30,199 bases of DNA. Origin: an uncultured Lentimicrobiaceae bacterium. GTDB taxonomy: Bacteria > Bacteroidota > Bacteroidia > Bacteroidales > F082. Location: the NCBI GenBank assembly GCA_964440855.1, contig CAYTUA010000130.1:1-30199 (forward strand), in the 5' to 3' direction. Position numbers and translations under genes: made by a program. Shown here piece by piece: positions 1 through 20,526 of this stretch; within the stretch, counting starts at the first letter, position 1; each line of letters begins with the position of its first letter. Under the pieces are notes generated by a model, which worked only from the letters and a program-made list of their open reading frames with translations, was not told the DNA's origin and searched no databases.

Positions 1-59
1 TTTCAGCTTCTCTTATCATTCATAGCCAGGCTCATACACAAAGTGCGAAACATTAGTTA
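1..59. repeat. 59-bp exact direct repeat, copy 1; probable right end of a MITE/IS-like element extending beyond the window start
   Basis: Bases 1..59 are identical to 2129..2187 and include the 16-bp TIR motif AGTGCGAAACATTAGT at 42..57. The match stops after ...CATTAGTTA. Confidence 0.9.
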
Positions 60-1481
60 TTCATTTTCAATTATTTCTTTCAATTCAGTTGTTATCTCAA
101 ATATTCGAAAAGGAAATTTCTGTCTTACTTCAGTCGCTTCTTCATAATCAAGTAAATCATATTGTTTAAAGAATTTTTTTTCAGAGTATACATTTCTTAA
201 TTCATTAACAGCTTCTTTTAAACTTAGCAAGACTTTGAAATAATTCGAAAAAGCAACATTGTCATTCACATAGAATTTGATTATATAATCTGAATTTTGT
301 TGAATTAATCTTTTAATTGTGCTTTTAATTCGATTGGTTTTAACCAAAGTGTCATTGATTACATTGTCAAATTCTGTTTGCTTAATTTCTATAATATTTT
401 GAACTTTATTTAAGTCCTTAATCGTTTTTGGATTCATCCAATCAGCTTTCCAATTGGGTAAAAGCATCGAAAATGAATAGTCTTGATAGAACCTTTTATC
501 ATACTCATTATTTGCTGGAACAACAGCATAAGCAATCCTTGAAACATTCGATTTTGTTAGTTCTTTTTTCACTTGATTGACAAAGTCCATTTTTATTGAT
601 TTGTGAATATGTAAACGATAAACCATGAAAGGAACATCGTACTTATATCTCACTGACTGCCATTCGATAATTTTTTCATGAAGTTTTTCAAAAGAAATTT
701 GTTCGTTGTCAACAATAATTATTGACTCATTTTCATTTTGCTTAGAATCAACCAAATATATATTTTCTGTTAATGACCTTTTCTCAATTCTTTTATAGCT
801 ATCAGATTCAGGCAATTCAAGGTTGTAATTGTAATGAATATTCTTTTTAAGATAATTATGATTAATTGTTTTGTAGTCAATTATATTAATTCTTGAAATA
901 CCAAAAGCAATAATAGATAATAGCACGCCTGAAATTAGCATCCATTTTTGCCCTTTCCTTTTTAATGACAAGCTTATTGTATTCCATGTTTGCAAGAACA
1001 GAACAATGACAATTAAAATAAATATGTAATTGTAATCTGGATATAAACTAAAAACGTAAAATCCGCCACGAAAAGTAAGTCCGAACATTAAACCAAAGAC
1101 AATGGCAAGTTTTGAAAACCAGCTTAAAAAATACCAGTTTATAGCTCTTTGGTCGTTTAATATTGTTGTTTTTCTGAGATTCTGCTTTCTAAATATACTT
1201 TTAGGTCGGTCAAGCCAAAATAAGAAAGCAATAGATTGTCCAATTATAACTGAAATATAGGCAAAAATCAGGTTATAAAAATAAACTTCTTTGTCGGTTA
1301 AAATCCACAAATCATAGGTTTCTGTAACTGAAAGAATCCTAAATACTTCTCGAATAAGGTATATGAAAGAATAAAATGCAAAAGCAAAGAATAGTCCGAC
1401 CATTATCCCAATGATAATCTTAAATCGAGATATTTGAATGAAATCAGGTTCTTTATGTAGAAATTTCTTTGTCAGCGTCAT
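57..1481 (-). CDS. Membrane protein with about 5 N-terminal TM helices and two C-terminal ExbD/TolR-like domains
   Basis: 474-aa ORF with five hydrophobic segments in the first ~200 aa. Segments LHIHKSIKMDFVNQVKKELTKSNVSRIAYAV and YFKVLLSLKEAVNELRN..KKFFKQYDLLD..VRQKFPFRIFE resemble Bacteroidota ExbD periplasmic domains. The gene is visibly more AT-rich than the rest of the window. Confidence 0.7.
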   Translation of the reverse strand: MTLTKKFLHKEPDFIQISRFKIIIGIMVGLFFAFAFYSFIYLIREVFRILSVTETYDLWILTDKEVYFYNLIFAYISVIIGQSIAFLFWLDRPKSIFRKQNLRKTTILNDQRAINWYFLSWFSKLAIVFGLMFGLTFRGGFYVFSLYPDYNYIFILIVIVLFLQTWNTISLSLKRKGQKWMLISGVLLSIIAFGISRINIIDYKTINHNYLKKNIHYNYNLELPESDSYKRIEKRSLTENIYLVDSKQNENESIIIVDNEQISFEKLHEKIIEWQSVRYKYDVPFMVYRLHIHKSIKMDFVNQVKKELTKSNVSRIAYAVVPANNEYDKRFYQDYSFSMLLPNWKADWMNPKTIKDLNKVQNIIEIKQTEFDNVINDTLVKTNRIKSTIKRLIQQNSDYIIKFYVNDNVAFSNYFKVLLSLKEAVNELRNVYSEKKFFKQYDLLDYEEATEVRQKFPFRIFEITTELKEIIENE

Positions 1482-1719
1482 TGTTGAGGTGTTTTCAGGC
1501 TAGATTACCAGCGGTTTGGCGGTCTGTTTTTGTTGCCGATTTCGAAGTAATTTGCTGACGAGTCCAACGGCAGGGCACCGATTGCAACCCGAAAATTCTG
1601 GAGGCGGCAGCGGAGGCACACATTGCAAATGTGCGCCATGGAGGGTGCCCAATAGCTCACTTGCTGTCTGCTCGATTGGCACTTCGTGCATTTTATTCAC
1701 TGATGTTTCGCACTCCGAA

Positions 1720-1732
1720 TAAAATGTTGATA
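1720..1732 (-). promoter_or_regulatory. IHF-consensus site just inside the left TIR
   Basis: The reverse complement TATCAACATTTTA matches WATCAANNNNTTR exactly. The region is AT-rich, so a chance match is possible. Confidence 0.4.
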
Positions 1733-1865
1733 ATGAGGAACAAAACACAAATGATGTTTTTTAAACTACAGAATTACAGCAACTTATATCTTTCCATTTT
1801 TGCTTTCAGGTTTACATGTCGCCAGTATCATGGATTATTTAGTAGAGCGCGAAGCGTGGCCCATT

Positions 1866-1996
1866 GCCCCCACCCCCCACAAGTGGGGGCTTCAGCCCGG
1901 TGTGATTTGACGTATAGGTTTTGGAATTGTACTGACTATTAGCCTTACTTCACTCTTGACCAGGTCGAAAGCCCCCACTTGTGGGGGTTGGGGGGC
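1866..1996. repeat. Inverted REP-like doublet (REPIN-like)
   Basis: GCCCCCACCCCCCACAAGTGGGGGCTT (1866..1892) and AAGCCCCCACTTGTGGGGGTTGGGGGGC (1969..1996) are near-perfect inverted copies 76 bp apart. Each has a 7-bp internal hairpin (CCCCCAC-AA-GTGGGGG). Confidence 0.8.
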
Positions 1997-2128
1997 TAAA
2001 ACAGAAAAATTAGCCAAAATATTATCTATTCACCTTTACAATATCAATCAGGCTGTAATCAATGATTTCAATCAATATCATGAATAGGGAAAAGCTTAAA
2101 GCTCAGAATATCTGTATTTTATATAAAA

Positions 2129-2187
2129 TTTCAGCTTCTCTTATCATTCATAGCCAGGCTCATACACAAAGTGCGAAACATTAGTTA
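2129..2187. repeat. 59-bp exact direct repeat, copy 2
   Basis: Identical to 1..59. Confidence 0.9.
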
Positions 2188-2287
2188 ATAAATCTTAAAT
2201 GGCTGTATTGTTAAAATGGACCAAAGCTTATCAAAAAAATGCATCAAATTTGAATAGAGAAATCACCCCCAGTATTGTACCATATAA

Positions 2288-2542
2288 TTACCGGTTTCCC
2301 AGGTACATGCGCGCACCACAGGCATAAGCAGAAGGACAAAGCTCTTGCTTGCCTTTGCTTTTTTTTGTCGCTTTGTTTTGTAATTCGGTGGTATTGAGTG
2401 GCTGAACTTCAAAAACAGTTTGTTCCTCCTTTTGCTTGGCTTTTCCTTGCAAGTAGACACTGTCAGTTTTTTGGCTGTTTGTGGGTTTTGACAAGCCAAA
2501 AAATTGCAACAAATTGTTTTTGAGTTTGTTATATTTGATCAC
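2288..2542 (-). CDS. Possible small basic hypothetical protein (84 aa, GTG start)
   Basis: ORF with a TAnnTTTG motif 40 bp upstream and an A-rich leader. No recognisable homology. Confidence 0.3.
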   Translation of the reverse strand: MIKYNKLKNNLLQFFGLSKPTNSQKTDSVYLQGKAKQKEEQTVFEVQPLNTTELQNKATKKSKGKQELCPSAYACGARMYLGNR

Positions 2543-2581
2543 AGGGGATTTTTTTTGTTATTTAATGAATCAAGTGTTTTG

Positions 2582-2589
2582 CAAAATTA
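2582..2589 (-). promoter_or_regulatory. Bacteroidota sigma-A -7 box (TAATTTTG)
   Basis: CAAAATTA on the + strand reads TAATTTTG on the - strand and points toward the small ORF at 2542. Confidence 0.4.
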
Positions 2590-2647
2590 CATAAATTATT
2601 CTTGAGGCATATCGACGGCACAAACCGTGGGTGTAAATCATTAAATG

Positions 2648-3592
2648 TTAAGTTAATGCACTGATTTTTTCAACAAGCACCTGTGCCATTTTGATATTTG
2701 ATTCATGCGTCCAGCCTGCTATATGCGGACTGAGGACAACATTGTCCAGTGCAAATAGCTGCTTCATGGGTTCGGGAAATTGGCTTAATTGCAGGCTTTC
2801 GAAGGATGATTTTTCGTACTCGAGTACATCGAGACAGGCACCACGAACGCTGCCACTTTTCAATGCAGCTAACAGGTCATTGGTGCTTACTACCTTACCC
2901 CGTGACGTGTTTAATAAAAAAATGGGTTTTGCAAACTTTTTAATATAGGCCAGGTCAACCATATAAGTTGTTTCTTCAGTTAGGGGGACATGCAGGCTTA
3001 GTATGTCGGATTCAGCAAAGATGCGGTCCATATCCACCTCTTCCACATTAGCATTCGAAAAATCACTTTTGTATTTGTCATAGGCCAATACCCTGACGCC
3101 AAAACCACTGAGTTTTTGCGCAAAAGCACTTCCCGTATTGCCATAGCCGATCAGGCCAATAGTTTTACCACCCAATTCAATCCCGCGGTTTTCTTCGCGC
3201 AACCAAATACCCTGCCGCACCTGCTTGTCGGCCACCAGCAGTTTGTTGAATAAAGCCAGCAACATGCCAATAGCCTGTTCGGCAACGGCATCGCGGTTGC
3301 CTTCAGGGGCATTCAGGCAACTGATCCCTTTTTTTCGGGCGTATTCTACGTCAATGTTTTCCATACCTGCGCCTACACGTGCTATGAAACGCAGTTTGCC
3401 GGCCACATCCATGATTTGCTTGTTCATGGAAATTTTGCTGCGCACCACAAAGCCGGTGTATTCCCCTGCAATACGCAGAATATCTTCCTTTTCGTAATCC
3501 GGGAAGTGATCGCATACAAATCCCATCTGTTCCAGTATTTGGTGTAGGCTGGGATGGGCTGTGTCAATAAAGAGGATTTTTGATTGAGGCAT
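2648..3592 (-). CDS. D-isomer-specific 2-hydroxyacid dehydrogenase (SerA-like, no ACT domain)
   Basis: ARVGAGMENIDV, NAPEGNRDAVAE, Rossmann GLIGYGNTG, NTSRG, LDVLEYE and SPHIAG motifs. Confidence 0.9.
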   Translation of the reverse strand: MPQSKILFIDTAHPSLHQILEQMGFVCDHFPDYEKEDILRIAGEYTGFVVRSKISMNKQIMDVAGKLRFIARVGAGMENIDVEYARKKGISCLNAPEGNRDAVAEQAIGMLLALFNKLLVADKQVRQGIWLREENRGIELGGKTIGLIGYGNTGSAFAQKLSGFGVRVLAYDKYKSDFSNANVEEVDMDRIFAESDILSLHVPLTEETTYMVDLAYIKKFAKPIFLLNTSRGKVVSTNDLLAALKSGSVRGACLDVLEYEKSSFESLQLSQFPEPMKQLFALDNVVLSPHIAGWTHESNIKMAQVLVEKISALT

Positions 3593-3603
3593 GTTTCATA
3601 AAT

Positions 3604-4770
3604 TTACCTATTCCCATTTAATCGCGACGACTCCCGGTTTATGCTCCTGCGGGCCGATTCATTCAGCGCTTTGGCAGCTTCAAGCACCATCAGGCCATCA
3701 GGTGGGAAAGGGATGTGCTTATTTTGCATCATTTGCCTCGTTTCTTTCGAAATGGCTTTTAAATCGCCGTTTACGCTGGCAAAAGCATGGTTGAAGTTAT
3801 TGGTTGCCGAAATGGGTATGGAGTAGACAATGCTGTTGTCGTAGTTGCGCATATAGTCCACGCTGCCTTCGAGCAAGGCACTTTTGTTGAGCAGGGTTTC
3901 GTAAACAATGGCTGAAACTGTTCTGTAATTGGGCACTTCCACCACTTTACCATCTTCATCCAGGACGATGTTCCCTTCATCATCACGCTTTGGTTTGGTC
4001 CCATCTTCAATCTCCCTGGTTTCAGTAAAACTGCGCGACTCAACTTGCTCAGGCGAAACACGGATATTTTTAAGTGTAATCCAAATGGTAAAATCATAGT
4101 TTTTGCCATCAAAAGCATACAGGTCATATTGCACAAATTCATCACGGAAATCGGCGGGGTTAAAGGCCATCAATCTATCGGTGAACCCATCGGGCAAAGG
4201 CATGCCTGCCTGGTTGTCGAAAGCCAGCAACACCTGGTTGGTGCCTTGCAGCAATGCCTGACGCATAAGTATTTCTGTATCGCGATAGTTGCGGTTGATT
4301 TGTGTTAGTTCCAACAAAAGGTCATAAGCCTTCCTGGCATCTGCTCTGTCATTGCTTTTGAGCAACTGTTCTGATCTGGCATACAGATAGGCTGAGGCCT
4401 TGTTGCGCGATTCGGCTATGTCGGCCCCATAATCAATTGGCCTGAAATTTACGCCCTGCTTTACGGCATCAGGCAATCCTTTGATCAAATCCTGCCGGTG
4501 GTTCATGGCCAGGTAGCGGAAATGTATATCTGACCAAATATCAGGTTGGCCACTTTGGCGCAAAAGCATTATCCTGTCATGGTCGCGCTGATTGGCCGCA
4601 TGAAAAGCCTGTCTGAGCAATTTCACATGCTTTTCCTTGGGGGTGCCAGTGCGCAACGACTTGCTAAGTTTCTCAATAGCCTGGTCATATTCCTGGTTTT
4701 TCACCAGTCTGGAAGGTGATGCGCATCCAAAGAGCAGCACCGTCATCAATAAAATGGCAATTAATCGCAT
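3604..4770 (-). CDS. Hypothetical lipoprotein with helical/TPR-like N-terminal half (start revised from 4836 to ATG 4770)
   Basis: MRLIAILLMTVLLFG-C is a signal peptide II with a lipobox. A TAATTTTG promoter at 4791..4798 lies inside the longer predicted N-terminus. The stop is 11 bp from the dehydrogenase start. Confidence 0.75.
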   Translation of the reverse strand: MRLIAILLMTVLLFGCASPSRLVKNQEYDQAIEKLSKSLRTGTPKEKHVKLLRQAFHAANQRDHDRIMLLRQSGQPDIWSDIHFRYLAMNHRQDLIKGLPDAVKQGVNFRPIDYGADIAESRNKASAYLYARSEQLLKSNDRADARKAYDLLLELTQINRNYRDTEILMRQALLQGTNQVLLAFDNQAGMPLPDGFTDRLMAFNPADFRDEFVQYDLYAFDGKNYDFTIWITLKNIRVSPEQVESRSFTETREIEDGTKPKRDDEGNIVLDEDGKVVEVPNYRTVSAIVYETLLNKSALLEGSVDYMRNYDNSIVYSIPISATNNFNHAFASVNGDLKAISKETRQMMQNKHIPFPPDGLMVLEAAKALNESARRSINRESSRLNGNR

Positions 4771-4790
4771 AGGGTCATTTTTAGAAGTTT

Positions 4791-4798
4791 CAAAATTA
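4791..4798 (-). promoter_or_regulatory. -7 promoter box (TAATTTTG) for the lipoprotein/dehydrogenase operon
   Basis: Exact TAnnTTTG 20 bp upstream of ATG 4770. Confidence 0.55.
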
Positions 4799-4933
4799 GT
4801 GATTATGCACACGATGTCATGCAGCAATCTTAACAAATTTCGAACCAGTTTTTCGTAATCGAAAATAAAGTGCTAATTTCGGTGGCTCATTTGAATTTCG
4901 ACACACTTTTTAGGCATTCAAAGCTATGCTTTT

Positions 4934-7342
4934 ATGAAGATCTGGACATTGATGGTAAGGCTGATATTGAGGAACCGTGTGGCAAACCTCATTGTTATCG
5001 GGATGATTACATTGCTCATGGGGTGGCAGGGTTTAAAGGTGAAAATGCATTATGAAATGCCCAGCATGTTACCCGATTCGGATAGCACAAGCATTGTTTA
5101 TCAGAATTTTAAAAAACAATTTGGGCAGGATGGCAGTGTGATGTTTGTAGGCATTCAGGATGAGAAACTGTTTGATCTGGATCACTTTCGTGCCTGGTAT
5201 AAACTTACAGAGGAGTTGAGGCGCATCGAAGGGGTAGAAGAAGTGGTGTCGGTGGCACGGATGTTCCAACTGCAGCGCAACGACAGCCTGCGTAAATTTG
5301 ATTTTCTTCCTGTTGTGGCGCGTCTTCCACAAACCCAGGCCGAACTTGATTCGCTCCGAGAGGCCATTTATAAGCTTCCTTTTTATGAAGGTTTGCTGTT
5401 CAATACAAAAAACCATGTGAGCATGATGATGATCACGCTCGATAACGAGTTGCTCAACACCAAAAGCCGCGTTGGTTTGGTATTTGAAATCAGGAATACG
5501 CTCGATAAATTCTCCAAAGAACAAAACCTCAAGCTATATTACTCAGGCCTGCCCTATATCAGGACCATGACATCAAAAAAGATTCAGGATGAACTGGTGC
5601 TGTTTATGTTTCTTGCCCTGGTGATAGCTGGCATCATCCTGTATGTTTTTTTCCGCTCAGCCAGACTGGTTTCTTTTATCCTGCTAATAGTAGTGATTAC
5701 GGTGATATTTATGTTTGGTACCATCACCTTGTTAGGCTATAAAATTTCAATACTTACAGCCATTTTGCCCCCCTTGCTTATTGTGATCGGGGTAGAAAAT
5801 TCTATCTTCTTGTTAAATAAATACTATAACGAATTTATTATTCACGGCAACAAAATAAAAGCTTTGTCGCGGGTAATCAGGCGTATAGGCCCTGCCAATC
5901 TACTAACCAACGCCACCACTGCCGCTGGTTTTGCAGCTTTTACGGTTACCGGAAATAAATTACTTGTCGATTTTGGTGTGGTTGCTTCTATCAATATACT
6001 GGCTTCATACCTTCTGAGCCTGTTCCTCATACCCATCATTTTTTCATTCCTTCCCGATCCCAAGGCCAGGCACATTCAGCATCTTGAAAAGGGCTTGGTG
6101 AGCAGGCTGTTAGAAAAAATTGTTTGGGTGGTATTAAATAGGCGTAATACGGTATATGCGATATCCATTACTGTAGTGCTTATTGGCTGTTTTGGACTGC
6201 TGCGGCTGCGAACCACCGGCAACGTGGTTGACGATATTTCTAAAAAAGATAGACTTTATAAAGACATGTTGTTTTTCGAAGAGCATTTTAATGGCGTAAT
6301 GCCTTTCGAAATTACGTTGGATACCAAGCGTAACCGGGGCGTATTGCGAATGGATAATTTGCAGAAAATTGACCAATTGCAGGATACCTTGCTAACCTTT
6401 TCTCATTTTAGTAAACCTTTGTCGGTTGTAGAGTTGGTGAAATTCTCCAAGCAGGCTTTTTACCGGGGTGATCCCAATTTTTACAACCTGCCAAGCAATC
6501 AGGAGCGGAATTTTATACTGCCCTATATGCCCAATATGCAGGGGGCTGGCCATGCACTTGTAAATTCGTTTGTGGATACCAATCTGCAGCTTACACGTAT
6601 CAGTGTGCAAATGGCCAATGTAAGTACGCGACAGATCGACAGTATCCTACAAACCCTTGACCCTAAGATCAAACAAATATTTCCACCTGAGGATTATGAT
6701 GTTGGTATCACAGGTACGAGTGTGGTTTTTTTGGAGGGAACCAATTATATGGTACGTAATTTACTCACTTCCCTGCTACTGGCATTGGTGGTAATAGTTT
6801 TGCTGATGGCACTTACTTTTTCCTCCTCCAAAATGATACTCATATCACTTGTTCCAAATCTTATTCCACAGCTGCTCACCGCGGCCATGATGGGATATGC
6901 AGGTATATCCATTAAGCCATCAACGATACTCATTTTCAGTATTGCACTGGGAATCAGCGTAGACAATACCATTCATTTTCTGGCCCGATACAGGCAGCAA
7001 CTGTTGATTAATAGTTTTAAAATCAAAGAATCGGTTTTGGCTGCCTTACTCGAAACAGGTTTTAGTATTATGTATTCTGCTGTGGTACTGTTTTTTGGTT
7101 TTGGAATATTTATTCTCTCATCCTTTGGGGGCACCGAGGCCATGGGGTATTTGGTATCCTTTACTTTGCTAATTGCCATGCTTTCGAACCTTTTTGTGCT
7201 TCCTTCGTTGTTATTGACATTGGACAAACGCATCATTACAAAATCTTTCAAAGAGCCGTTTTTTGAGATTTTTGATGAGGAGGATGACCTTGAGTTAGAT
7301 GATTTGGAGGTTGAAGAAATTGATACACGTGGCGGAAGCTAA
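4934..7342 (+). CDS. MMPL/RND-family transporter
   Basis: 802 aa with two repeats of one TM + large periplasmic loop + TM bundle, SGLPYIR and GISVDNTIHF motifs, and an acidic C-terminal tail. Confidence 0.9.
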   Translation: MKIWTLMVRLILRNRVANLIVIGMITLLMGWQGLKVKMHYEMPSMLPDSDSTSIVYQNFKKQFGQDGSVMFVGIQDEKLFDLDHFRAWYKLTEELRRIEGVEEVVSVARMFQLQRNDSLRKFDFLPVVARLPQTQAELDSLREAIYKLPFYEGLLFNTKNHVSMMMITLDNELLNTKSRVGLVFEIRNTLDKFSKEQNLKLYYSGLPYIRTMTSKKIQDELVLFMFLALVIAGIILYVFFRSARLVSFILLIVVITVIFMFGTITLLGYKISILTAILPPLLIVIGVENSIFLLNKYYNEFIIHGNKIKALSRVIRRIGPANLLTNATTAAGFAAFTVTGNKLLVDFGVVASINILASYLLSLFLIPIIFSFLPDPKARHIQHLEKGLVSRLLEKIVWVVLNRRNTVYAISITVVLIGCFGLLRLRTTGNVVDDISKKDRLYKDMLFFEEHFNGVMPFEITLDTKRNRGVLRMDNLQKIDQLQDTLLTFSHFSKPLSVVELVKFSKQAFYRGDPNFYNLPSNQERNFILPYMPNMQGAGHALVNSFVDTNLQLTRISVQMANVSTRQIDSILQTLDPKIKQIFPPEDYDVGITGTSVVFLEGTNYMVRNLLTSLLLALVVIVLLMALTFSSSKMILISLVPNLIPQLLTAAMMGYAGISIKPSTILIFSIALGISVDNTIHFLARYRQQLLINSFKIKESVLAALLETGFSIMYSAVVLFFGFGIFILSSFGGTEAMGYLVSFTLLIAMLSNLFVLPSLLLTLDKRIITKSFKEPFFEIFDEEDDLELDDLEVEEIDTRGGS

Positions 7343-7410
7343 TTGGTAGCTGCAACATTTTATAAAAAATCAAGTTTATCAAAAGGAATTAAATAAAAAA
7401 ACCATACATC

Positions 7411-8271
7411 ATGAAAGGAATCATCTTAGCAGGCGGGTCGGGAACACGTTTACATCCCCTTACGCTGGCCGTGAGCAAGCAACTAATGCCTATTTACGAC
7501 AAGCCTATGATTTACTATCCCCTATCAGTTTTGCTTATGGCCGGGATACGCGAAATCCTGATAATTTCTACTCCGCACGACTTGCCGCATTTTAAAAGAC
7601 TTCTGGGCGACGGTTCAGGCATTGGATGCACATTCGCTTATGCTGAGCAGGTGGTCCCCAATGGCTTGGCGCAGGCTTTTGTGATTGGAAAGGAGTTTGT
7701 TGGAAATGATAAAGTTGCACTTGTGCTGGGTGATAATATATTCTATGGCAGTGGCTTGCAAAAATTGCTTGTCGAGAACAACGATCCTGATGGAGGTGTG
7801 GTATTTGCTTATCATGTTTCGGACCCGGAGCGCTATGGTGTGGTTGAGTTTGACGATGAAAACAAGGCCATTTCCATCGAAGAAAAACCAAAGCAGCCCA
7901 AATCGAATTATGCAGTGCCAGGCTTGTATTTTTATGACAATTCAGTTGTGGACGTGGCTGCTAATATTCAGCCAAGTGCGCGTGGTGAGTACGAAATCAC
8001 GGATGTTAATAAATACTATCTGAAGCAAGGAAACCTGAAGGTGGGTATTCTGGGGCGCGGAACTGCCTGGCTGGATACAGGCACTTTCGAATCCCTGCTG
8101 CAAGCATCGCAGTTTGTGGAGGTGATCGAAAACCGACAAGGACTCAAAATTGGTTGTATTGAAGAAATTGCCTTCAAAAAAGGCTTTATTGATGCCGCAC
8201 AATTGGAAATAATTGCGCAACCATTGCTTAAAAGTGGTTATGGCCAGTATTTGTTAAACCTCATTAGATAA
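7411..8271 (+). CDS. rfbA: Glucose-1-phosphate thymidylyltransferase
   Basis: [47 protein letters not shown] and [10 protein letters not shown] motifs. Confidence 0.97.
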
Positions 8272-8285
8272 GCTATTTAACTCAA

Positions 8286-9269
8286 TTGATTATGTCAAGT
8301 ATGGTGCGCGAATTTCAGGAAATGATTGAAGGCCTTATCAGCGAGCAGAATTTTGCACGTAAACCTGTTGAACTTTACGAACCCATTGCCTATACCATGG
8401 GACAGGGAGGGAAGCGCCTTCGACCGGTATTGACCCTGTTGTCGTGCAATTTGTTTGGTGGTGAGGTTAATCAGGCAACCTATCCGGCACTTGCCGTAGA
8501 AGTGTTTCACAATTTTACACTCGTTCACGATGATATCATGGACAAAGCACCTTTACGCCGTGGAATGGATACTGTTTTTAAAAAATGGAATGCTGATATC
8601 GCCATCCTCTCGGGTGATACCATGTTTGCTATGGCTTATCAATATGCCCTGCGGACAGAGCCCGCATTTGTGTCCGACATTTTGCGTGTATTCAGTAAGG
8701 CCGCCATCGAAGTGTGCGAGGGTCAGCAAATGGATATGAATTTTGAAACACAACCGGAGGTTGAGATTGCTGATTACCTGGAAATGATACGCCTTAAAAC
8801 AGCTGTGCTATTAGGGGCAGCACTTGAAATTGGCGCTATTGTGGGAAAAGCCTCCGAAGCTGATATTGTTCATATTTATGAATTTGGTGTAAATCTGGGA
8901 ATTGCCTTTCAGCTGAAAGATGACCTGCTCGATGTATTTGGCGACCAAAAAGAGTTTGGAAAAATGAGCGGCGGCGATATAGCAGCCAATAAAAAAACCT
9001 ATCTCTATCTGAAGGCCTTAGAACTGGCCAATTCCCAACAAAATGCTAAATTGAAAAAGTATTACACCACCAACGATATGCCAGCTGAAGAAAAAATTAT
9101 TGCCGTAAAAACTATTTTTGATGACTTGCAAATAGAAAATCAAGTGAGTGATATCATGCAGCAGTATTATGAATCAGCATTGGCCGCTTTAGCCAGGATA
9201 AATTTACCCGAAAAGCAAAAAGAACCCCTGCTGAACTTTGCCGAAAAACTCTTCCACCGAACTTATTAG
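8286..9269 (+). CDS. Polyprenyl synthetase (geranylgeranyl-diphosphate synthase-like); start could be ATG 8292
   Basis: GGKRLRP, HNFTLVHDDIMD..LRRG (first Asp-rich motif), EGQQMD, KTA and FQLKDDLLD (second Asp-rich motif). Confidence 0.93.
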   Translation: MIMSSMVREFQEMIEGLISEQNFARKPVELYEPIAYTMGQGGKRLRPVLTLLSCNLFGGEVNQATYPALAVEVFHNFTLVHDDIMDKAPLRRGMDTVFKKWNADIAILSGDTMFAMAYQYALRTEPAFVSDILRVFSKAAIEVCEGQQMDMNFETQPEVEIADYLEMIRLKTAVLLGAALEIGAIVGKASEADIVHIYEFGVNLGIAFQLKDDLLDVFGDQKEFGKMSGGDIAANKKTYLYLKALELANSQQNAKLKKYYTTNDMPAEEKIIAVKTIFDDLQIENQVSDIMQQYYESALAALARINLPEKQKEPLLNFAEKLFHRTY

Positions 9270-9310
9270 TTATTGTAAACTGATGGGTCTTTTATGCTAA
9301 TCTGTATTCC

Positions 9311-11269
9311 TCACTGAAAATGAAGCAATGAGCCTTGCAACTCATCCAATTGTTGGTGTTTCTGTTCCCAGCTTTCCATGGTGGCTGTCAATTTTTCCTT
9401 GATACCGGAATATTGCTTATACCATTCGTCATCAATTGTTTGTTGGTGTGCCGATGGATTGGCGAGCATAGTATCTGCCTCAGTAATTTGCTGTTCCAGT
9501 TTGGAGATTTGCTGCTCAAGCATTTCAATTTCACGTTCGGTTTTCCGGATGTCGCGGTCAATCAATTTGCGTTTTTCGTAATTCTTCTTGTTCTGCGAAA
9601 CAGGTTCAGAAGCAGAGGATTCCGCATCATTTATTTTTTTCTGCTCCAGCTCTTCCAGCTTTTCAATTTGCCTTGAATCAAGAAAATCATAAATATCACC
9701 TATATGCTCTCTGATACGTGGTTTTCGAAACTCATAAACCTTGTTGGTGAGGCCTTGCAAAAAGTCCCGGTCGTGCGATACAATGATCAAAGTGCCATCA
9801 AAACGGATCAGGGCACTTTTCAAAATATCCTTCGATTGCATGTCCAGGTGGTTGGTTGGTTCATCAAGGACCAATAAATTCACCGGGTTCAGCAAGAGCT
9901 TTGCCAACGAAAGTCTTGATTTTTCACCCCCTGAAAGAACTTTCACCTTTTTGTCGATGGCTTCTCCTCCAAAAAGGAATGCACCAAGCAAGCCCTTTAT
10001 CCTGGGGCGCATTTCACCAACAGCCACCTCATCCAGGGTTTCGAAAACAGTTTTTTCGCCATCAAGCATATCATGCTGATTTTGGGCGTAATAGCCTACA
10101 CTTACCTGATGGCCCAATTTGAGTTCTCCGCTATAATCAAGTACCCCGGCGATGATTTTTGACAGGGTGGACTTTCCTTCACCGTTGCGGCCGACAAATG
10201 CAATGCGGTCGCCGCGTAATACCACCAGATCAATCTTGTTGAGAACCTGCAGATTGCCATATTGTTTGGACAACCCATGAGTTTCAACCGTAATTTTTCC
10301 TGAATGGGGTGCAGGTGGAAAGCGGAAATGAATGGCAGATTTGTCCATGTCGTCTATGGCGATTTCATCCATCTTTTCCAACATCTTTACCCGTGATTGC
10401 ACTTGCTTTGATTTGGTGCTTTTATAACGAAAACGTTCGATAAAGCGCTCAATTTCACGCACCTCGCGTTGCTGGTTGTTGTAGGCTGCCTGCTGATTGC
10501 TGATGCGTTCCTCGCGCATGCCTATATATTCTGAATAAGAGCCTTTGTAATCGTACACCTTGCCCTGGCTGATTTCAATGGTGCGCTTGGTGATGTTATC
10601 AAGAAAGGCCCTGTCGTGGGAAACCATTACGATGGCGCCATAATAGGTTTGTAAAAAACCTTCGAGCCACTGTATGGATTCGATATCGAGGTGGTTGGTA
10701 GGCTCGTCAAGCAGCAATAAGGAGGGCTGTTTGAGCAGGATTTTAGCCAATTCCACACGCATCTGCCAGCCGTTGCTAAATTCCTGCATAGGCCGGCTTA
10801 AGTCGGTACGCTCAAAACCCAGACCGGTAAGTACGCGTTCTGCCTCGCCCTCAATGGTGCTGGAGCCAAGCAATGCCAATCTTTCATTGAGCAGGCTCAA
10901 GCGCTCGATCAGTTTGTTGTAGGCGGTTGATTCGTAATCGTTGCGTTCAGTAATTTCACCCGTAATTTTGGCAATCTGCTTTTCCAGGTGGTTGATCTCG
11001 TCAAAGGCAGTCATGGCTTCATCCAAAACAGTTTTATTGCTGCCAAGTTCCTTTTCCTGGGGTAGGTAACCCAGTGAGGCATCTTCTGGTACTATCACAT
11101 CCCCTTTATAAGGTTGCTCCAAGCCGCAAATGAGACGCAGCAGCGTAGTTTTGCCTGCACCGTTCCTGCCCACCAACCCAATACGGTCCTTCTCGCGGAT
11201 CAAAAAGGTGATGTTGGTGAATAGGTCTTCACCGGTATAGTGCATGCTAAGGTTTTGAACAGAAACCAT
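9311..11269 (-). CDS. ABC-F family ATPase (Uup/YheS/YdiF-like) with C-terminal coiled coil
   Basis: Two ABC domains (GRNGAGKTT, LLLLDEPTNHLD; GRNGEGKST, LSGGEKSR, LLVLDEPTNHLD), no TM segments, an interdomain linker and a C-terminal helical extension. Confidence 0.93.
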   Translation of the reverse strand: MVSVQNLSMHYTGEDLFTNITFLIREKDRIGLVGRNGAGKTTLLRLICGLEQPYKGDVIVPEDASLGYLPQEKELGSNKTVLDEAMTAFDEINHLEKQIAKITGEITERNDYESTAYNKLIERLSLLNERLALLGSSTIEGEAERVLTGLGFERTDLSRPMQEFSNGWQMRVELAKILLKQPSLLLLDEPTNHLDIESIQWLEGFLQTYYGAIVMVSHDRAFLDNITKRTIEISQGKVYDYKGSYSEYIGMREERISNQQAAYNNQQREVREIERFIERFRYKSTKSKQVQSRVKMLEKMDEIAIDDMDKSAIHFRFPPAPHSGKITVETHGLSKQYGNLQVLNKIDLVVLRGDRIAFVGRNGEGKSTLSKIIAGVLDYSGELKLGHQVSVGYYAQNQHDMLDGEKTVFETLDEVAVGEMRPRIKGLLGAFLFGGEAIDKKVKVLSGGEKSRLSLAKLLLNPVNLLVLDEPTNHLDMQSKDILKSALIRFDGTLIIVSHDRDFLQGLTNKVYEFRKPRIREHIGDIYDFLDSRQIEKLEELEQKKINDAESSASEPVSQNKKNYEKRKLIDRDIRKTEREIEMLEQQISKLEQQITEADTMLANPSAHQQTIDDEWYKQYSGIKEKLTATMESWEQKHQQLDELQGSLLHFQ

Positions 11270-11338
11270 TGGTTAGTTTTGGGGTTGTCAGGTGTGATTT
11301 ACAATAAATTTTATCAGCTCTGCTATTCAGATTGCCTG

Positions 11339-11346
11339 CAAAAATA
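11339..11346 (-). promoter_or_regulatory. -7 promoter box (TATTTTTG) for the ABC-F gene
   Basis: CAAAAATA on the + strand, followed on the - strand by CAGGC, 69 bp upstream of the ATG. Confidence 0.55.
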
Positions 11347-11435
11347 GTGGTTTTGCTTGAGTCAAAGGGTTAAATCAATAAATTCAGAAGGACTGTTGCA
11401 TGTTTGACAAGATGTAAAAATAGTGGAAAATCAAT

Positions 11436-11443
11436 TATTTTTG
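11436..11443 (+). promoter_or_regulatory. -7 promoter box (TATTTTTG) for the divergent 11595 cluster
   Basis: Exact TAnnTTTG followed by CC, in the divergent intergenic region. Confidence 0.45.
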
Positions 11444-11594
11444 CCTCTTAATTGAATTTTAGAAGAGGCTGAAAGATACAGCAAGCAGTAATTATTTTTT
11501 CAGGGTCAAAGCAACAATAACATATGTATAATTGTTATGTAAAATGCCCATCTCCTATGCTCGGGATGGATTTAAACAATAAACACCAATCCAA

Positions 11595-12161
11595 ATGCGT
11601 ACATTTTTAATTCTGATCCTGCTGTTGCCCGCTGCACATTATGGGTTTACGCAGAATAAATACGAAAAAGAAATCCGTGTTAAAGACAAGGATGTGCCCA
11701 TAGAGGCTTTGCGTTTTGTTGACACATTGGCGTTTACAAAAAAGGTTAAATGGTTCAAGGAAATCGGATTGGATAAAAACTCTTATGAAGCAAAAACCAA
11801 AAAAGAGGGTCGGTGGTATAGCATTGAATTTTCTGCTGATGGAACTTTTGAGGACATTGAAATAGTGATTGATTCAGAAGAAATTCCTGATGAAATACAG
11901 AAAAAGATATTCACTTATCTCAATGAAAAGTATGATAAATATACGATTGAGAAAATACAGATACAGTATTCGGGAAGCCACACCCTAAACTATTTTCTAA
12001 ACAGGGGGCCGGTAGTTGATCTTAAAATTCAATACGAAATTGTGCTTTCAAGCAAATTGGATGGTGCATTCGTAATGTTTGAAGCATTGTTCGATGCTGA
12101 TGGAGCATTTTTAAACAGTGCGCGAATTGTTTTAGACAGATTGGACAATATTGAATATTAG
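11595..12161 (+). CDS. Secreted hypothetical protein, PepSY-like/BLIP-like repeat pattern
   Basis: N-terminal signal peptide and a repeated xVPxxA/xIPxEIQ..Y...IEKI pattern with YEAK..YSIEFSADG typical of Bacteroidota PepSY-like proteins. Confidence 0.6.
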   Translation: MRTFLILILLLPAAHYGFTQNKYEKEIRVKDKDVPIEALRFVDTLAFTKKVKWFKEIGLDKNSYEAKTKKEGRWYSIEFSADGTFEDIEIVIDSEEIPDEIQKKIFTYLNEKYDKYTIEKIQIQYSGSHTLNYFLNRGPVVDLKIQYEIVLSSKLDGAFVMFEALFDADGAFLNSARIVLDRLDNIEY

Positions 12162-12162
12162 C

Positions 12163-12828
12163 ATGAGAAGTAGCGTTTGGTTATTGTGTATTATTTTGAT
12201 TATTCCATTGATTAGCAATGCGCAATCGAATTTTCAGCTGGGCATTTTGCCTTCAGTTAACATCAATGCGAAATTGCCGAAGGATTGGGCCCTTAATTTT
12301 AAGGTTGAATCAAGGCAGGGCTTGTTTAATGATCAATTTAACTACGATTATTTGCTCACCGATATCTCCATCGGAGGAGGAAAAAAAATTGGCATCAATA
12401 CGACCCTGGCAGGTGCTTATCTGATCCGAATTGATAACAACTCAGTAAGACACAGGGCGATTCAACAGCTAAGTTTTGTCAGGAGATATCCGGGTTTAAG
12501 ATTATCGCATAGAATATCGGCAGATCAAACATTTAAAGATGAAGAAAGTACTGAAATCAGATTGCGATACAGACTTTCATCTGAGATACCCTTGCAAGGA
12601 CATTCCCTCGATCCAAAGGAATTTTTTCTGAAGTTTAACAACGAGTATCTGAACGCTTTTGAAGGAAATGATTATGATTTGGAAATCAGGGTAGCTGCCT
12701 TTGTCGGATATGCCTTAACTGCTTCTGGGAAGCTGGAAATTGGGCCCGATTACCGACTTGATTCCTTTATCAATCATGCTGCAAGAAATCGCGTGTGGAT
12801 CAGCATCAACTTTTATCAGTCATTGTAG
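12163..12828 (+). CDS. DUF2490-like outer-membrane beta-barrel protein (start revised from 12151 to ATG 12163)
   Basis: Signal peptide, alternating amphipathic strands, RHRAIQQ, RLRYRLSSEIPL and NNEYL motifs, and an aromatic residue near the C-terminus. Confidence 0.7.
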   Translation: MRSSVWLLCIILIIPLISNAQSNFQLGILPSVNINAKLPKDWALNFKVESRQGLFNDQFNYDYLLTDISIGGGKKIGINTTLAGAYLIRIDNNSVRHRAIQQLSFVRRYPGLRLSHRISADQTFKDEESTEIRLRYRLSSEIPLQGHSLDPKEFFLKFNNEYLNAFEGNDYDLEIRVAAFVGYALTASGKLEIGPDYRLDSFINHAARNRVWISINFYQSL

Positions 12829-12889
12829 GCTATTATACCCTGAATTGTTGCTGATTGAGCATGTTTCAAGAATATTTACTTGAATCATT

Positions 12890-12897
12890 TATCTTTG
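12890..12897 (+). promoter_or_regulatory. -7 promoter box (TATCTTTG) for the GNAT gene
   Basis: Exact consensus 23 bp upstream of ATG 12921. Confidence 0.6.
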
Positions 12898-12920
12898 AGC
12901 CCCTAAGACATTGCTATGCC

Positions 12921-13775
12921 ATGAAAAAATATCAGCTTAAATTATTAGACCTTAAAGGAGTTCGCCAATTGGTTTCCTGGGCTGCCGATGAAGGATGGAA
13001 TCCTGGGCCAGAAGATGCAGAAGTGTTTTATCGGACTGACCCGGAAGGGTTTTATGGCTTTTTTGAAGATGGGAAGTTAATTGCCGGAGGAGCTATTGTT
13101 TCCTATGATACAAGCTTTGGTTTCATGGGCCTTTTCATTGTTCAGCCCGGTTTAAGGTCGAAAGGCCTCGGAAAGCAACTGTGGTATCAGCGCCGCAATT
13201 TGCTTCTTAGCAGATTAAGACCAGGCGCTGCTATTGGTATGGACGGGGTTGTAGCCATGCAGCCTTTTTACAATAGAGGAGGCTTTGAAATGGCGTTTAG
13301 GAGTGAACGCTATCGAAGACTTGGAAGCTATTTCGAGTCAGAAGAGAATGTCAACAGAATTGATATAAATGATTTTCAAAAAATCATAGAGTACGACACC
13401 CGTTGTTTTGGTTTCCCACGTCCTGAGTTTCTGGAACAATGGCTTGTTCTCCAATCAAGTTTTAAATATGCTTATACGGAGGAGGGAACAACCCGGGGTT
13501 ATGCAGTTCTGCGCAAAGTAATTGATGGTTATAAAATCGGCCCCCTATTTGCCGACAATGCTTTGATTGCCGAAGCACTCTATCGCACCTGCCTTTCTTC
13601 TGTTGAGGGTGAGGCTGTTTTTCTGGATGCACCTGTAGTGAACGTAGTAGCCATTGAAATGCTTAATAAGTACAAAGCCACCTATGTGTTTGAATGTGCC
13701 AGGATGTACTATGGCAATCCACCAAACTTGCCAATGAATAATATATTTGGTATCACTACTTTTGAGCTCGGCTAA
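12921..13775 (+). CDS. Tandem-GNAT N-acetyltransferase (YitH-like) (start revised from 12855 to 12921)
   Basis: WAADEGWNPG, FGFMGLFIV..RSKGLG (acetyl-CoA motif A), GMDGVVAMQPFY, and a second domain with KIGPLFAD and FECARMY. Confidence 0.85.
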   Translation: MKKYQLKLLDLKGVRQLVSWAADEGWNPGPEDAEVFYRTDPEGFYGFFEDGKLIAGGAIVSYDTSFGFMGLFIVQPGLRSKGLGKQLWYQRRNLLLSRLRPGAAIGMDGVVAMQPFYNRGGFEMAFRSERYRRLGSYFESEENVNRIDINDFQKIIEYDTRCFGFPRPEFLEQWLVLQSSFKYAYTEEGTTRGYAVLRKVIDGYKIGPLFADNALIAEALYRTCLSSVEGEAVFLDAPVVNVVAIEMLNKYKATYVFECARMYYGNPPNLPMNNIFGITTFELG

Positions 13776-13806
13776 AGATAGCCAGAAGTTATATAAAATC
13801 AGATCC

Positions 13807-14349
13807 ATGCCTAAATACTTCATTGTTGTTGCATTGGCTGTTTTGTTTTCAGGCTGCCATTATAACCAATCAAAATCAGATCTTATGGAAAATTCAGCAC
13901 AAAAAACCCACAATAAGCTGGCCGAAAACGATACCACCCCAAGGGTAACTGGCATAGGTGGTATTTTCTTTTTTTCGGATAATCCGAATGAAACAAAGGC
14001 CTGGTATGCCAAAAATTTGGGACTTGAAGTAAATGAATGGGGATCAAGTTTTGAATTCAGAAATGGCAACCGGCCTGATGAAATCAATTATTTGCAATGG
14101 AGCCCATTCAAAACAGGAAGTGCTTATTTTGAACCTTCTCAAAAGGAATTTATGATCAATTACCGTGTGCAGAATATCGAAGGGCTTGTGCGCCAATTGA
14201 AGGAAAATGGCGTAACTATTCTCGATAGCATTGAGGCGTTTGATTATGGGAAGTTTGTGCATATTATGGATGCGGAAGGCAATAAAATCGAACTTTGGGA
14301 ACCTGTTGACAGCGTGTTCACCGCCATGGGCGGAAAAACAACAAAATAG
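13807..14349 (+). CDS. VOC/glyoxalase-family protein with a predicted lipoprotein signal (start revised from 13747 to 13807)
   Basis: PRVTGIGGIFF, WYAKNLG, FMINYRV and DYGKFVHIMDAEGNKIELWEP motifs. N-terminus MPKYFIVVALAVLFSG-C. Confidence 0.85.
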   Translation: MPKYFIVVALAVLFSGCHYNQSKSDLMENSAQKTHNKLAENDTTPRVTGIGGIFFFSDNPNETKAWYAKNLGLEVNEWGSSFEFRNGNRPDEINYLQWSPFKTGSAYFEPSQKEFMINYRVQNIEGLVRQLKENGVTILDSIEAFDYGKFVHIMDAEGNKIELWEPVDSVFTAMGGKTTK

Positions 14350-14360
14350 CTTTTCGGAAG

Positions 14361-14397
14361 GGCCTTAGCCATTGTGAATGGGACGAAAGGCTTTTTG
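14361..14397 (+). terminator. Possible intrinsic terminator after the VOC gene
   Basis: GCCTT..CCATT-GTG-AATGG..AAGGC interrupted hairpin followed by TTTTT. Confidence 0.4.
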
Positions 14398-14457
14398 CGA
14401 AATAAATTTGCCTGCCTCATATATCCGCTAAATGCGATGGCATTCTGGTAATCTCCT

Positions 14458-14465
14458 TATCTTTG
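14458..14465 (+). promoter_or_regulatory. -7 promoter box (TATCTTTG) immediately before the TPR lipoprotein start
   Basis: TATCTTTG-CGCC-ATG. Confidence 0.65.
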
Positions 14466-14469
14466 CGCC

Positions 14470-15363
14470 ATGAAAATCTGGAACAAACTCATGGCAACGG
14501 CCTCGATTGCCTTAACAATAGTGCTGACGATAAGCAGCTGCTCCACTACAATGAATACTGCTGAGCTGCAGCGGAATGCTGAAAGTGCCTTTGCCGCTGG
14601 TGAATATGCAAAGGCTTTGCAGCAATACGAAAACTTGATTGAAAGCTGGAACAACAGCAAGGAAAACGAACAAAATCCCTATTACGACAAAGCTGGCCAT
14701 GCGGCTTTTGCCCTGAAAGACTATGAGAAAGCCAATAATTATTTTAGTCAAGCCATGCACTACGGAACAGCTACACCAGCCACCTATACCGAACTAATTG
14801 GCTACTACCGCGAAATCAACAATTTTTCGCGCGAAATGATGACACTTGAAGGCATGGTTGAGACTTTTCCGGAGAAAGCAGCTGCCAACGGGGTGCATGA
14901 GCGACTTTTTGAAATGTATGTTGAAACTGATCGTTGGGAAGATGCTGCTTTACAAGCCAAAAAGTTCAATCCCAAATCCGACGAAATATTGCTTGAAAAG
15001 TTGCTGGAAATGCACAGCAGTTTGGGCAATAAGGCTGAAGCAGATGACATGGCCGGGCAACTTTTAGCCCTGAACGGAGACAATATTCCGGCCTTGGAAT
15101 GGCGTGCAAAAAAATATTACGACAAGGCCGAAGCCCGTTACAAAGCTGAAGCAGAAGCTTACGATCGCAATAAAACCCGTCGCCAATATGCGCAGTTGCT
15201 CGAAGGTTATGAAGCTGCTGGCGTGGATTACCGCAAAGCGCGCGATATTTATGAGCGTTTGTACAAACGCAAGCCTGAAAAACGCTATGCCTTGTATCTT
15301 TACAATATTTATGCACGATTTCAGGATGAAGCCAAAGCAGCTTATTACCGTTCCAGGATGTAA
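14470..15363 (+). CDS. TPR-repeat lipoprotein
   Basis: Signal peptide II (IVLTISS-C) and helical repeats (AFAAGEYAKALQQYE, AFALKDYEKANNYF, YRKARDIYERLY). Confidence 0.8.
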   Translation: MKIWNKLMATASIALTIVLTISSCSTTMNTAELQRNAESAFAAGEYAKALQQYENLIESWNNSKENEQNPYYDKAGHAAFALKDYEKANNYFSQAMHYGTATPATYTELIGYYREINNFSREMMTLEGMVETFPEKAAANGVHERLFEMYVETDRWEDAALQAKKFNPKSDEILLEKLLEMHSSLGNKAEADDMAGQLLALNGDNIPALEWRAKKYYDKAEARYKAEAEAYDRNKTRRQYAQLLEGYEAAGVDYRKARDIYERLYKRKPEKRYALYLYNIYARFQDEAKAAYYRSRM

Positions 15364-15482
15364 AATTTAAATCACTGACAAAGTGGAAGAAACGGTTGCC
15401 ACTGTAAAAATGGCAACTTATAATGCTTGCATGAGGTTAGGCCTGTTTGTGGCAACTTATTTCAACGAAAAAATAAATACAA

Positions 15483-16523
15483 ATGACTGACGAAAACGAA
15501 ATGACCGGCATCAACGAATTGGGTGAATTTGGCCTGATTGATCACCTTACCAAAGGGATTGAATTGGTGAATCCTTCAAGCATTAAGGGCGTGGGCGACG
15601 ATGCAGCTGTTATTGATAATGAATCCTATCAAACCCTTGTCTCCACTGATTTGCTCGTTGAAGGAATTCATTTCGATATGATGTACACCCCCTTAAAACA
15701 CCTTGGTTACAAAGCAGCTGTGGTGAATTTTTCCGATATTTTTGCCATGAATGGAGTTCCAAAACAAATTGTGGTAGGCATCGCCCTTTCAAGCAAATTT
15801 ACCTTGGAAGCTGTTGAGGAAATGTATGAAGGTATCCGCACAGCCTGCGCCAATTATGGCGTTGATATGGTTGGGGGCGACACAACCACTAGCAAATCAG
15901 GCCTGTTTATTTCTGTTACAGTAATCGGGCAAGCCAAAGCCGATAAGCTCTGCTATCGCTCCGGGGCAAGCGAAAATGATTTGATTTGCGTAAGTGGCGA
16001 TTTGGGAGGTGCCTATATGGGGCTGCTGTTGCTTGAGCGTGAAAAAGCTGTTTTTAAGGCCAATCCCGAAATGCAACCCGATCTGGATGGTTATGATTAT
16101 GTGCTTGGCCGACAACTCAAACCGGAGGCAAGGCAAGATATTGTGAATGAACTGGCCGAGGCCGGCATTCTTCCCACTTCCATGATTGATATTTCTGATG
16201 GCTTGGCTTCCGAAGTATTTCATTTACGCAAACACAGTGGATTGGGATGCCGCATTTATGAAGAAAAGCTTCCTATTCATGCTGAGACCCTACGTGTGTG
16301 CGAGGAGTTTAAAATGGTGCCCGCTATTGCAGCGCTCAATGGGGGCGAAGATTATGAACTGCTTTTTACAATCAAACAAGCTGATTTTTCAAAAATTGGC
16401 CAACTGGATAAGGTTACCGTTATTGGCCATATGACGGCGGATGCCAATGAGGCCACACTTGTAAGTGTAGATAACCAAGCCATTACTTTAAAAGCCCAGG
16501 GGTGGGATGCGTTGAAAAGCTGA
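15483..16523 (+). CDS. thiL: Thiamine-monophosphate kinase
   Basis: GEFGLI, GVGDDAAV, TDLLVEGIHF, NFSDIFAM, VGGDTT, MIDISDGLASE and GGEDYELLFT motifs. Confidence 0.96.
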   Translation: MTDENEMTGINELGEFGLIDHLTKGIELVNPSSIKGVGDDAAVIDNESYQTLVSTDLLVEGIHFDMMYTPLKHLGYKAAVVNFSDIFAMNGVPKQIVVGIALSSKFTLEAVEEMYEGIRTACANYGVDMVGGDTTTSKSGLFISVTVIGQAKADKLCYRSGASENDLICVSGDLGGAYMGLLLLEREKAVFKANPEMQPDLDGYDYVLGRQLKPEARQDIVNELAEAGILPTSMIDISDGLASEVFHLRKHSGLGCRIYEEKLPIHAETLRVCEEFKMVPAIAALNGGEDYELLFTIKQADFSKIGQLDKVTVIGHMTADANEATLVSVDNQAITLKAQGWDALKS

Positions 16524-16559
16524 TAACTTTGTGGACTAATCAAGCCGTTTTTTCAACTG

Positions 16560-18368: not shown

Positions 18369-18370
18369 GA

Positions 18371-19042
18371 TTATTGCAGTATAAACTTCACCGGTAGGTT
18401 GTATGTTACCCTTACGGGCTGACCTGCTTGCATGCCTGGTTTCCAAGCGGGCAAAAGGCTTACCACGCGCATGGCTTCCTGATCGCAGCCTCCGCCAATA
18501 CCGCGTAGCAACTTGATACCACTTATGGAGCCGTCCCTTTCAATTACAAATCCGAGATAAACAATACCGGTAATGTTCATCTCCCTTGCAAGGGGAGGGT
18601 ATTTTATCTCTCTGGCCAAAAAGGCCATCAAGGCTTCTGTGCCTCCTGGGAATTCTGGCATCGCTTCAGGGATGGCCACAGGTGTATCGTCAACTAATTG
18701 ATCCTCCTGTTTAAGTGTTGGAACAAATGGTGGTATGGGAACATCAGGCGTAATGGAAGCATCTATAATGACGGGGTCATCAGCCTGTTTGTGGTCCTCA
18801 ATGGGTGTAATCTTTATACTTTGTTTGGGAAGTGGAGGTTCGGGCTGCTTGTGTTTTGTGATTGGAATTAAATCAAAATCAGTTTCGCTTCCGATCCTCT
18901 TTGGCAGTTCAAGGCTTCTTACTTCATAAGTTCTGTACTCAAAGGCAAAAAATACCAGTGCCAGTGCGATGACCATCCCGATTTGTGAAAAAATCAGGCG
19001 TTTGTTTTCGAGGTTTGCTTTGGGGGATTTTTTTGTTTCCAT
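18371..19042 (-). CDS. tonB: Energy transducer TonB (paralog 2)
   Basis: N-terminal TM, Pro-containing linker and C-terminal MPEFPGG..YPPLAREMNITGIVYLGFVIERDG..GIGGGCDQEA domain. Confidence 0.92.
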   Translation of the reverse strand: METKKSPKANLENKRLIFSQIGMVIALALVFFAFEYRTYEVRSLELPKRIGSETDFDLIPITKHKQPEPPLPKQSIKITPIEDHKQADDPVIIDASITPDVPIPPFVPTLKQEDQLVDDTPVAIPEAMPEFPGGTEALMAFLAREIKYPPLAREMNITGIVYLGFVIERDGSISGIKLLRGIGGGCDQEAMRVVSLLPAWKPGMQAGQPVRVTYNLPVKFILQ

Positions 19043-20520: not shown

Positions 20521-20526
20521 GCTTTG

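Follow-up and report, generated by a model that had tools for sequence, protein, structure and literature searches.

The 59-base direct repeat that brackets a foreign-looking gene at the start of contig C130 derives from a MITE, a small non-autonomous transposon, whose conserved right end it represents; it lies at the edge of the contig. The reading we favour, with a probability of roughly 0.6, is that a MITE jumped into an integron-type gene cassette and that the link between this cassette and the chromosome in C130 is an assembly path guided by repeated sequence. The analysis was carried out on the window, the whole of C130 from its first base (CAYTUA010000130.1, positions 1-30199; 30,199 nucleotides), which belongs to an uncultured Lentimicrobiaceae MAG (GCA_964440855.1, here G000; 558 contigs, 81% complete). 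Z and Y denote the host chromosome to the left and right of the MITE site, G001 a congener, X1 to X5 independent runs represented by k=31 contigs (Logan), L016 a Logan contig from a soda-lake run and L085 an independent 35.6-kb JGI contig. The features of the window are listed below.

Features of the window, with strand and the basis on which each was assigned
Feature	Position	Strand	Basis
MITE right-end tail, cut by contig start	1..56	+	Identical to 2129-2184; 53-55/56 in four other copies
TTATTCA, right copy of 7-bp target duplication	57..63	.	Same heptamer as 1693-1699; contains the gene's stop and last sense codon
Cargo gene, 474 aa	57..1481	-	ORF; five TM helices and two ExbD/TolR-like periplasmic domains (predicted)
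Cassette 5' leader and degenerate core-site-like boundary	1482..1512	-	Upstream-region comparison
Conserved attC 3' half-module (L'-R'-like)	1506..1547	-	Common to other cassettes
Gene-proximal part of attC-like tail	1548..1692	-	Moved to far side of gene by circular permutation; small hairpin 1616-1636
TTATTCA, left copy of target duplication	1693..1699	.	7/7 match
Complete MITE, 485 bp	1700..2184	+	TIRs; family copies with 7-8-bp duplications
TTAATAA, target of chromosomal MITE insertion	2185..2191	.	Single in C404; both sides of MITE in L085
Host chromosome	2185..30199	.	Pfam: 2-hydroxyacid dehydrogenase, TPR protein, MMPL transporter onward; collinear with G001

Self-comparison of the window confirmed what an earlier, sequence-only reading had reported, an exact repeat of 1-59 at 2129-2187 that carries the same TIR end; the similarity continues to 70 nt, with 93% identity, and inverted ends were found at 1692-1714 and 2170-2192. 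The AT-rich gene that the same reading placed between the copies was also borne out, with a GC content of 24-31% against 40-50% in the remaining window, as was the view that it is foreign cargo. The stop codon of this gene (TAA, 57-59), described earlier as lying at the repeat boundary, sits inside the repeat, solely because the right-hand flanks of the two copies, TTATTCA and TTAATAA, both start with TTA. The complete TIR element proposed at the second copy was likewise real, with its length corrected from 487 to 485 bp by the target duplications. Since the window begins with the first base of its contig, one of 558 in the MAG, the first copy was truncated by assembly, which left 56 nt of the MITE right end.

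Exact identity of the two copies had been taken to imply a recent event, and this argument failed. The last 56 nt of the MITE were matched at 55/56 positions on the MAG contigs C237 and C450 and at 53/56 on C80 and C546; because this tail is almost invariant among family copies, the exactness of the 59-nt repeat is uninformative on age. No further exact copy of the repeat was present in the MAG.

The MITE proved to be one of a family. Its TIRs (1700-1714 and 2170-2184) were complementary at 14 of 15 positions. Four more right ends with 90-94% identity were found in the MAG, bringing the number of right ends to six; C60 and C342 carried left ends, and C546 had a short complete copy. The congener G001 gave 49 matches to the 13-nt TIR end, compared to 0-1 for a control pattern, and contained about 25 copies, the paired ends of which were all 280-430 bp apart. 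All paired family copies measured 270-485 bp, with no transposase within. Exact duplications of 7-8 bp flanked the copies L060 (TAACCTA), L067 (TTAATAA), L075 (TTTTATAA) and the one on C546 (TTATACAT). Copies, empty sites and flanking duplications, proposed earlier as a check on mobility, were thus all found: the family is multicopy, empty and occupied alleles exist, and insertion is accompanied by 7-8-bp duplications. The repeat marks one end of a genuine mobile MITE, from a family that is active and genus-restricted.

The right end had no match in 300 genomes of the order, and these, together with 60 genomes of the host family, showed no member of the MITE family beyond the genus. A copy carrying a transposase was found neither in the MAG or G001 nor in the 300 genomes. 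An autonomous partner IS was sought as ends paired 1-3 kb apart, of which there were none in the MAG or G001; the unpaired ends in G001 were at contig ends or were part of short copies. A second element type with the same 13-nt terminus and a longer, 20-nt inverted end (…CGCACAAGCTG) was observed in the MAG at C146:1474 and C139:1690, its two ends being on different contigs; it might be a related element or a broken partner IS. On C237 (1-470, L003), a tandem array of approximately 50-nt units, each with a GCTTCCGCAAGGAAGC hairpin, adjoined a MITE right-end module, and no left end was present within that contig.

The centre of the window MITE is a GC-rich palindrome with arms at 1867-1892 and 1969-1994. 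These 26-nt arms form a separate small repeat family, with matches on C12, C97, C419, C453 and C477, that is also present in other genera of the host family. Different GC-rich hairpins occupied the same central position in the MITE copies of G001, and the central hairpins look like nested REP-like insertions. An Rfam search of positions 1-3000 of the window returned no match.

Three states of the chromosomal site were distinguished. The MAG's own contig C404 ends with Z joined to Y via one TTAATAA, which represents an empty allele, and G001 was collinear across the Z|Y junction (a single 1,382-nt match, 78.6%), so the empty site is ancestral. The second state was found in L085, which reads Z-TTAATAA-MITE-TTAATAA-Y with a 484-bp MITE, a perfect duplication and no cassette; contrary to the arrangement read from the window, in which the gene stands at this locus, this independent assembly carries the MITE without it. 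C130 shows the third, MITE and cassette. The L085 MITE had 12 substitutions and a 1-nt deletion relative to that of the window (approximately 97% identity), every one of them to the left of 2078, and the two were identical over the last 107 nt (2078-2184).

Other assemblies ended at the boundaries of these units: L084 at 2108, L087 and L089 at 2184, and L091 at the Z boundary. A 3,792-nt contig of run X1, which has an extra 975 nt to the right of base 5000, ends at 2184 and shows only a branch at that point. A look-up of the TonB-dependent receptor on the Z side returned only L085 and the contig that stops exactly at the junction (L091). Scans of metagenome contigs with exact patterns gave 0 matches for the Z end and 0 for the junction of the right end with the gene.

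The two apparent ends of the repeat are two sides of a single MITE insertion, because the heptamer TTATTCA flanks both and occurs once in MITE-free relatives. The flanks matched at 7/7 bases at a fixed position, for which the chance is approximately 1.3e-4 at the local base composition, whereas the right flank of the complete MITE, TTAATAA, differs from its left flank. In the MITE-free contig L016 (98.5% identity over the gene), the sequence corresponding to window 1614-1699 joins window 57 via a single TTATTCA. The same joint, 1692 to 57 with one TTATTCA, was present in L027 (94%, also MITE-free) and in a contig of run X5, where the sequence goes back 1636 positions with 7 letters in common. 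The repeat period of 2128 is the sum of a 1636-bp cassette unit, the 485-bp MITE and the 7-bp duplication. The cargo is circularly permuted in the window, since what comes after the stop codon in its relatives stands upstream of the gene here.

The target of the insertion is a closed 1,636-bp unit that consists of the gene and an attC-like tail. Closure, that is, the tail followed by the gene's own leader, was covered without a break or mismatch from 1043 to 1815 by k=31 contigs of X2 and X3, and X1 covered 1470-1609. Because the k=31 contigs of all three runs show the same joint, the MAG assembler did not create the closure. The cassette read as a closed loop of gene, tail and the gene's own 5' leader in every assembly examined.

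The sequence of events that we propose is as follows. A single 485-bp MITE would have transposed into an integron-type cassette, landing between the stop codon of the ExbD-like gene and the attC-like tail and duplicating TTATTCA. Linearisation of the resulting loop at the MITE would place the right end on one side and a whole MITE on the other, which would appear as the 59-bp repeat. A second MITE copy, approximately 97% identical, would occupy the polymorphic chromosomal site at TTAATAA, and C130 would leave the loop via the 107 nt that the two copies have in common. The loop itself might be a free circle, or might be integrated between MITE copies elsewhere.

We infer that the link in C130 is such an assembly path rather than a real fusion. 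The path is ambiguous, since the passage from the cassette to Y crosses a stretch of 107 nt or more in which two MITE copies do not differ, and the same junction content is given by Z-MITE-Y together with a closed cassette-plus-MITE unit and by Z-MITE-cassette-MITE-Y. The right copy in C130 is of the cassette type at every variable site up to 2077, which is automatic for a switch within the common stretch and counts for an assembly path. Counting against it, read pairs may have carried the MAG assembler across the MITE.

The alternative that survives best is that the fusion is real, the MITE-bearing cassette circle having recombined by homology with the chromosomal MITE to give a true MITE-cargo-MITE structure (Z-TTAATAA-MITE-TTATTCA-cassette-TTATTCA-MITE-TTAATAA-Y); we consider this possible but rather unlikely. 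All four junctions found in X2 and X3 fit one such molecule, and the left end of the cassette MITE in these runs has a single left context (1043-1815), which fits if the left copy is of the other variant. Fusion would also account, in the absence of a replicating circle, for a unit depth of approximately 0.8-1.2 times that of the chromosome in X1-X3, as measured by Logan depths, which are not copy numbers; a non-replicating 2.1-kb circle should not reach a chromosome-like depth. The alleles at this one site can, moreover, be ordered as a series: empty (C404, G001), MITE only (L085), and MITE with cassette (C130). Against fusion, neither the left copy nor the Z junction was ever seen, and the only assembly that spans Z to Y, L085, is without the cassette. 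Such a crossover would, in addition, need to lie within the last 107 nt despite a longer stretch of identity at 1874-2029, which carries a chance of about one in four.

It is improbable that the unit is a tandem duplication of the MITE-bearing cassette within an array, collapsed into a loop by the assemblers. Its k-mer graph would be closed in the identical way, and the genus does have cassette arrays (on G001:C63; the MAG contigs C46 and C334 bear attC-type modules), but the unit depth relative to the chromosome was approximately 1x, not at least 2x, in three runs (again Logan depths rather than copy numbers) and no junctions leading out of an array were seen. Least probable is the arrangement proposed in the sequence-only reading, a classical composite transposon in which two independently inserted MITEs bracket and move a resident gene: direct repeats with intact TIR ends do flank a foreign gene, and Acinetobacter is known to have integrons flanked by MITEs (PMC10969869, PMC3934969), but independent insertions would each have their own duplication, whereas the complete copy is preceded by TTATTCA, the heptamer that follows the other copy, and followed by TTAATAA, which also flanks the MITE alone in L085, while the cargo is permuted relative to its MITE-free relatives and G001 lacks both gene and MITE at the locus. 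The mobile MITE and the foreign cargo of that proposal stand, and the composite of two insertions does not: the inner flanks are one target duplication, from an insertion into a cyclically closed cassette, the reverse of the pattern expected had a composite transposon captured a chromosomal gene. A MITE-cassette-MITE arrangement could still exist as a fusion product, a prospect that we rate as tentative.

By descent, the cargo of the window appears to be an integron-type cassette, which is not proven to be active. The wording is limited to descent because the window tail does not fold as an attC site and no integrase was found: positions 1503-1692 folded no better than shuffled sequence (z = +0.66), with only the L'-R' half-module recognisable, the best match to the integron integrase model (TIGR02249) in the MAG scored 102 bits against a 265-bit cut-off, and 41 genomes, the MAG plus 40 relatives, gave 0 matches at E <= 1e-40. 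The boundary of the cassette is core-like, reading GCTGGTA at 1512-1506 in the window compared to GTTGGCA in L016, and foreign contigs of X5 part from the window at 1508 and 1510. In this lineage, only the central six bases of the core pair correspond (TGCCAA and TTGGCA in L016), and the site in the window is CTGGTA. Half-modules similar to that at 1506-1547 were found on C46 and C334, in L017 and on G001:C63 (the MAG was scanned with a strict motif, a loose motif being too noisy), and alternative contexts in X2 and X3 diverge at 1515-1517 and 1547-1548. The remainder of the tail, 1548-1692, was 86% identical to the sequence directly 3' of the stop codon in L016 and 79% identical to that in L027.

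In L017, a 79% identical relative of the gene lies within a textbook cassette array. In three successive cassettes of this contig, the inverse core after the stop codon was the exact complement of the cassette's own 5' boundary, the pair for the cargo-gene family being GTTAGCACC and GGTGCTAAC. The bottom strands of the attC sites of L017 folded as R-box/spacer/L-stem hairpins with z values of -2.6 to -3.2 (-2.6 for the cassette of the cargo family). Two identical group II introns (RVT_1 and GIIM, 419 aa) were observed in L017 at 2103-3362 and 10780-12039, on the strand opposite to the cassettes, a placement that matches the description for attC-targeting introns.

A co-oriented array on G001:C63 ends in the cargo gene, in the order DUF4386-like protein, DNA methylase and its partner, and cargo gene; related long tails stand between the genes, and no integrase was seen with the array. 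The cassette just upstream of the cargo gene (1469-3362, L077) encodes an N6/N4 DNA methylase with an overlapping 285-aa ORF, probably a restriction-modification pair carried as a cassette. In run X5 the window's cassette was present at 98.5% identity without the window's chromosome, which argues that the cassette moves between hosts.

The many homologue contigs of 1.5-1.66 kb were considered as small circles; they are better explained by the breaking of k=31 contigs at conserved attC modules. In run X1 the cassette tail came in two forms of similar depth (69 and 76), one of which lacks or has replaced positions 1500-1574. The joint in that version runs from 1499 to 1575 with CAGG at both edges, and the missing 75 nt include the attC half-module and the core-like site.

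All components of the system are of known kinds, the MITE family and the cassette being new members, and their combination is mildly interesting. In an IS26-type translocatable unit, a circle of one element copy and its cargo fuses with another copy of the element, giving direct repeats with hybrid flanks. The geometry of the proposed fusion is similar, and the comparison serves as a working analogy; the window element is, however, non-autonomous, no circle was directly observed here, and fusion, if real, would proceed by host homologous recombination. The element resembles other prokaryotic MITEs (MITEAba12 and the 439-bp Acinetobacter MITE) in being short (270-485 bp) and free of a transposase, and in having TIRs, target duplications of a set length, numerous copies and polymorphic insertions with empty sites. 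It differs from them in being found in one Bacteroidota genus only (361 genomes searched), in its 7-8-bp duplications, in its variable GC-rich central palindrome and in that the partner IS was not found.

MITE-flanked class 1 integrons, or integron mobilisation units, likewise have MITE copies in direct orientation with integron-type cargo. In those units, two complete MITEs bracket the whole integron and an outer duplication is present (PMC10969869, PMC3934969), the reports cited there being Gillings 2009, Domingues 2011 and 2013, and Zong 2014. Here, in contrast, one MITE lies inside a single cassette and the inner flanks are the duplication. Integrons have been reported in Bacteroidota, and cassettes in the free state are circular and do not replicate (PMC8618304). 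The likeness to integron gene cassettes (an ORF plus attC) extends to a single ORF with a short leader, to the core/inverse-core complementarity and attC fold of L017, to co-oriented arrays of unrelated genes, to group II introns on the opposite strand and to the presence of the cassette in different hosts; the differences are that the window tail keeps the 3' half-module only, with no attC fold, and that a search of the MAG and 40 related genomes found no intI.

The position of a MITE within a single cassette, where it may serve as a homology handle, would be a modest novelty. It is conceivable, though doubtful, that the MITE makes an excised cassette circle translocatable, able to fuse by homology with any chromosomal MITE copy. 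If so, genomes without an integron integrase could capture cassettes and later release them, and the three alleles at Z|Y would be snapshots of such a cycle; MITE homology would, if the fusion is real, constitute an integrase-independent route of cassette capture. The case also illustrates how a repeat at a contig edge can mimic a composite transposon; the flanking heptamers, the relatives without the MITE and other assemblies were sufficient to undo that reading. An active MITE family confined to one genus is recorded here from an environmental lineage of Bacteroidota, together with an integron-type cassette, moving from host to host, that encodes an unusual protein predicted to have five TM helices and tandem ExbD-like domains.

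An exact database look-up of the 474-aa protein returned no record, and PADLOC and NCBIfam gave nothing useful for it. Pfam ExbD (PF02472) matched residues 220-321 with 17.6 bits, below the 25.4-bit gathering cut-off (E=0.004). There were 164 homologues of approximately 475 aa, mostly from Bacteroidota, some of which carry a precomputed Pfam ExbD match. The AF2 model (pLDDT 80.9) comprised five TM helices and two alpha/beta domains; residues 175-322 and 364-424 matched Swiss-Prot ExbD models in structure, and matches to 8vgd_B and 8p9r_A had a TM score by target of 0.71, an rmsd of 2.1 and a probability of 1.0. According to this model, the protein carries two predicted ExbD/TolR periplasmic-domain folds. 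Elsewhere in the window, within the host chromosome, a 123-nt direct repeat with 80% identity was observed at 18924-19046 and 19929-20051, its copies 1,005 nt apart.
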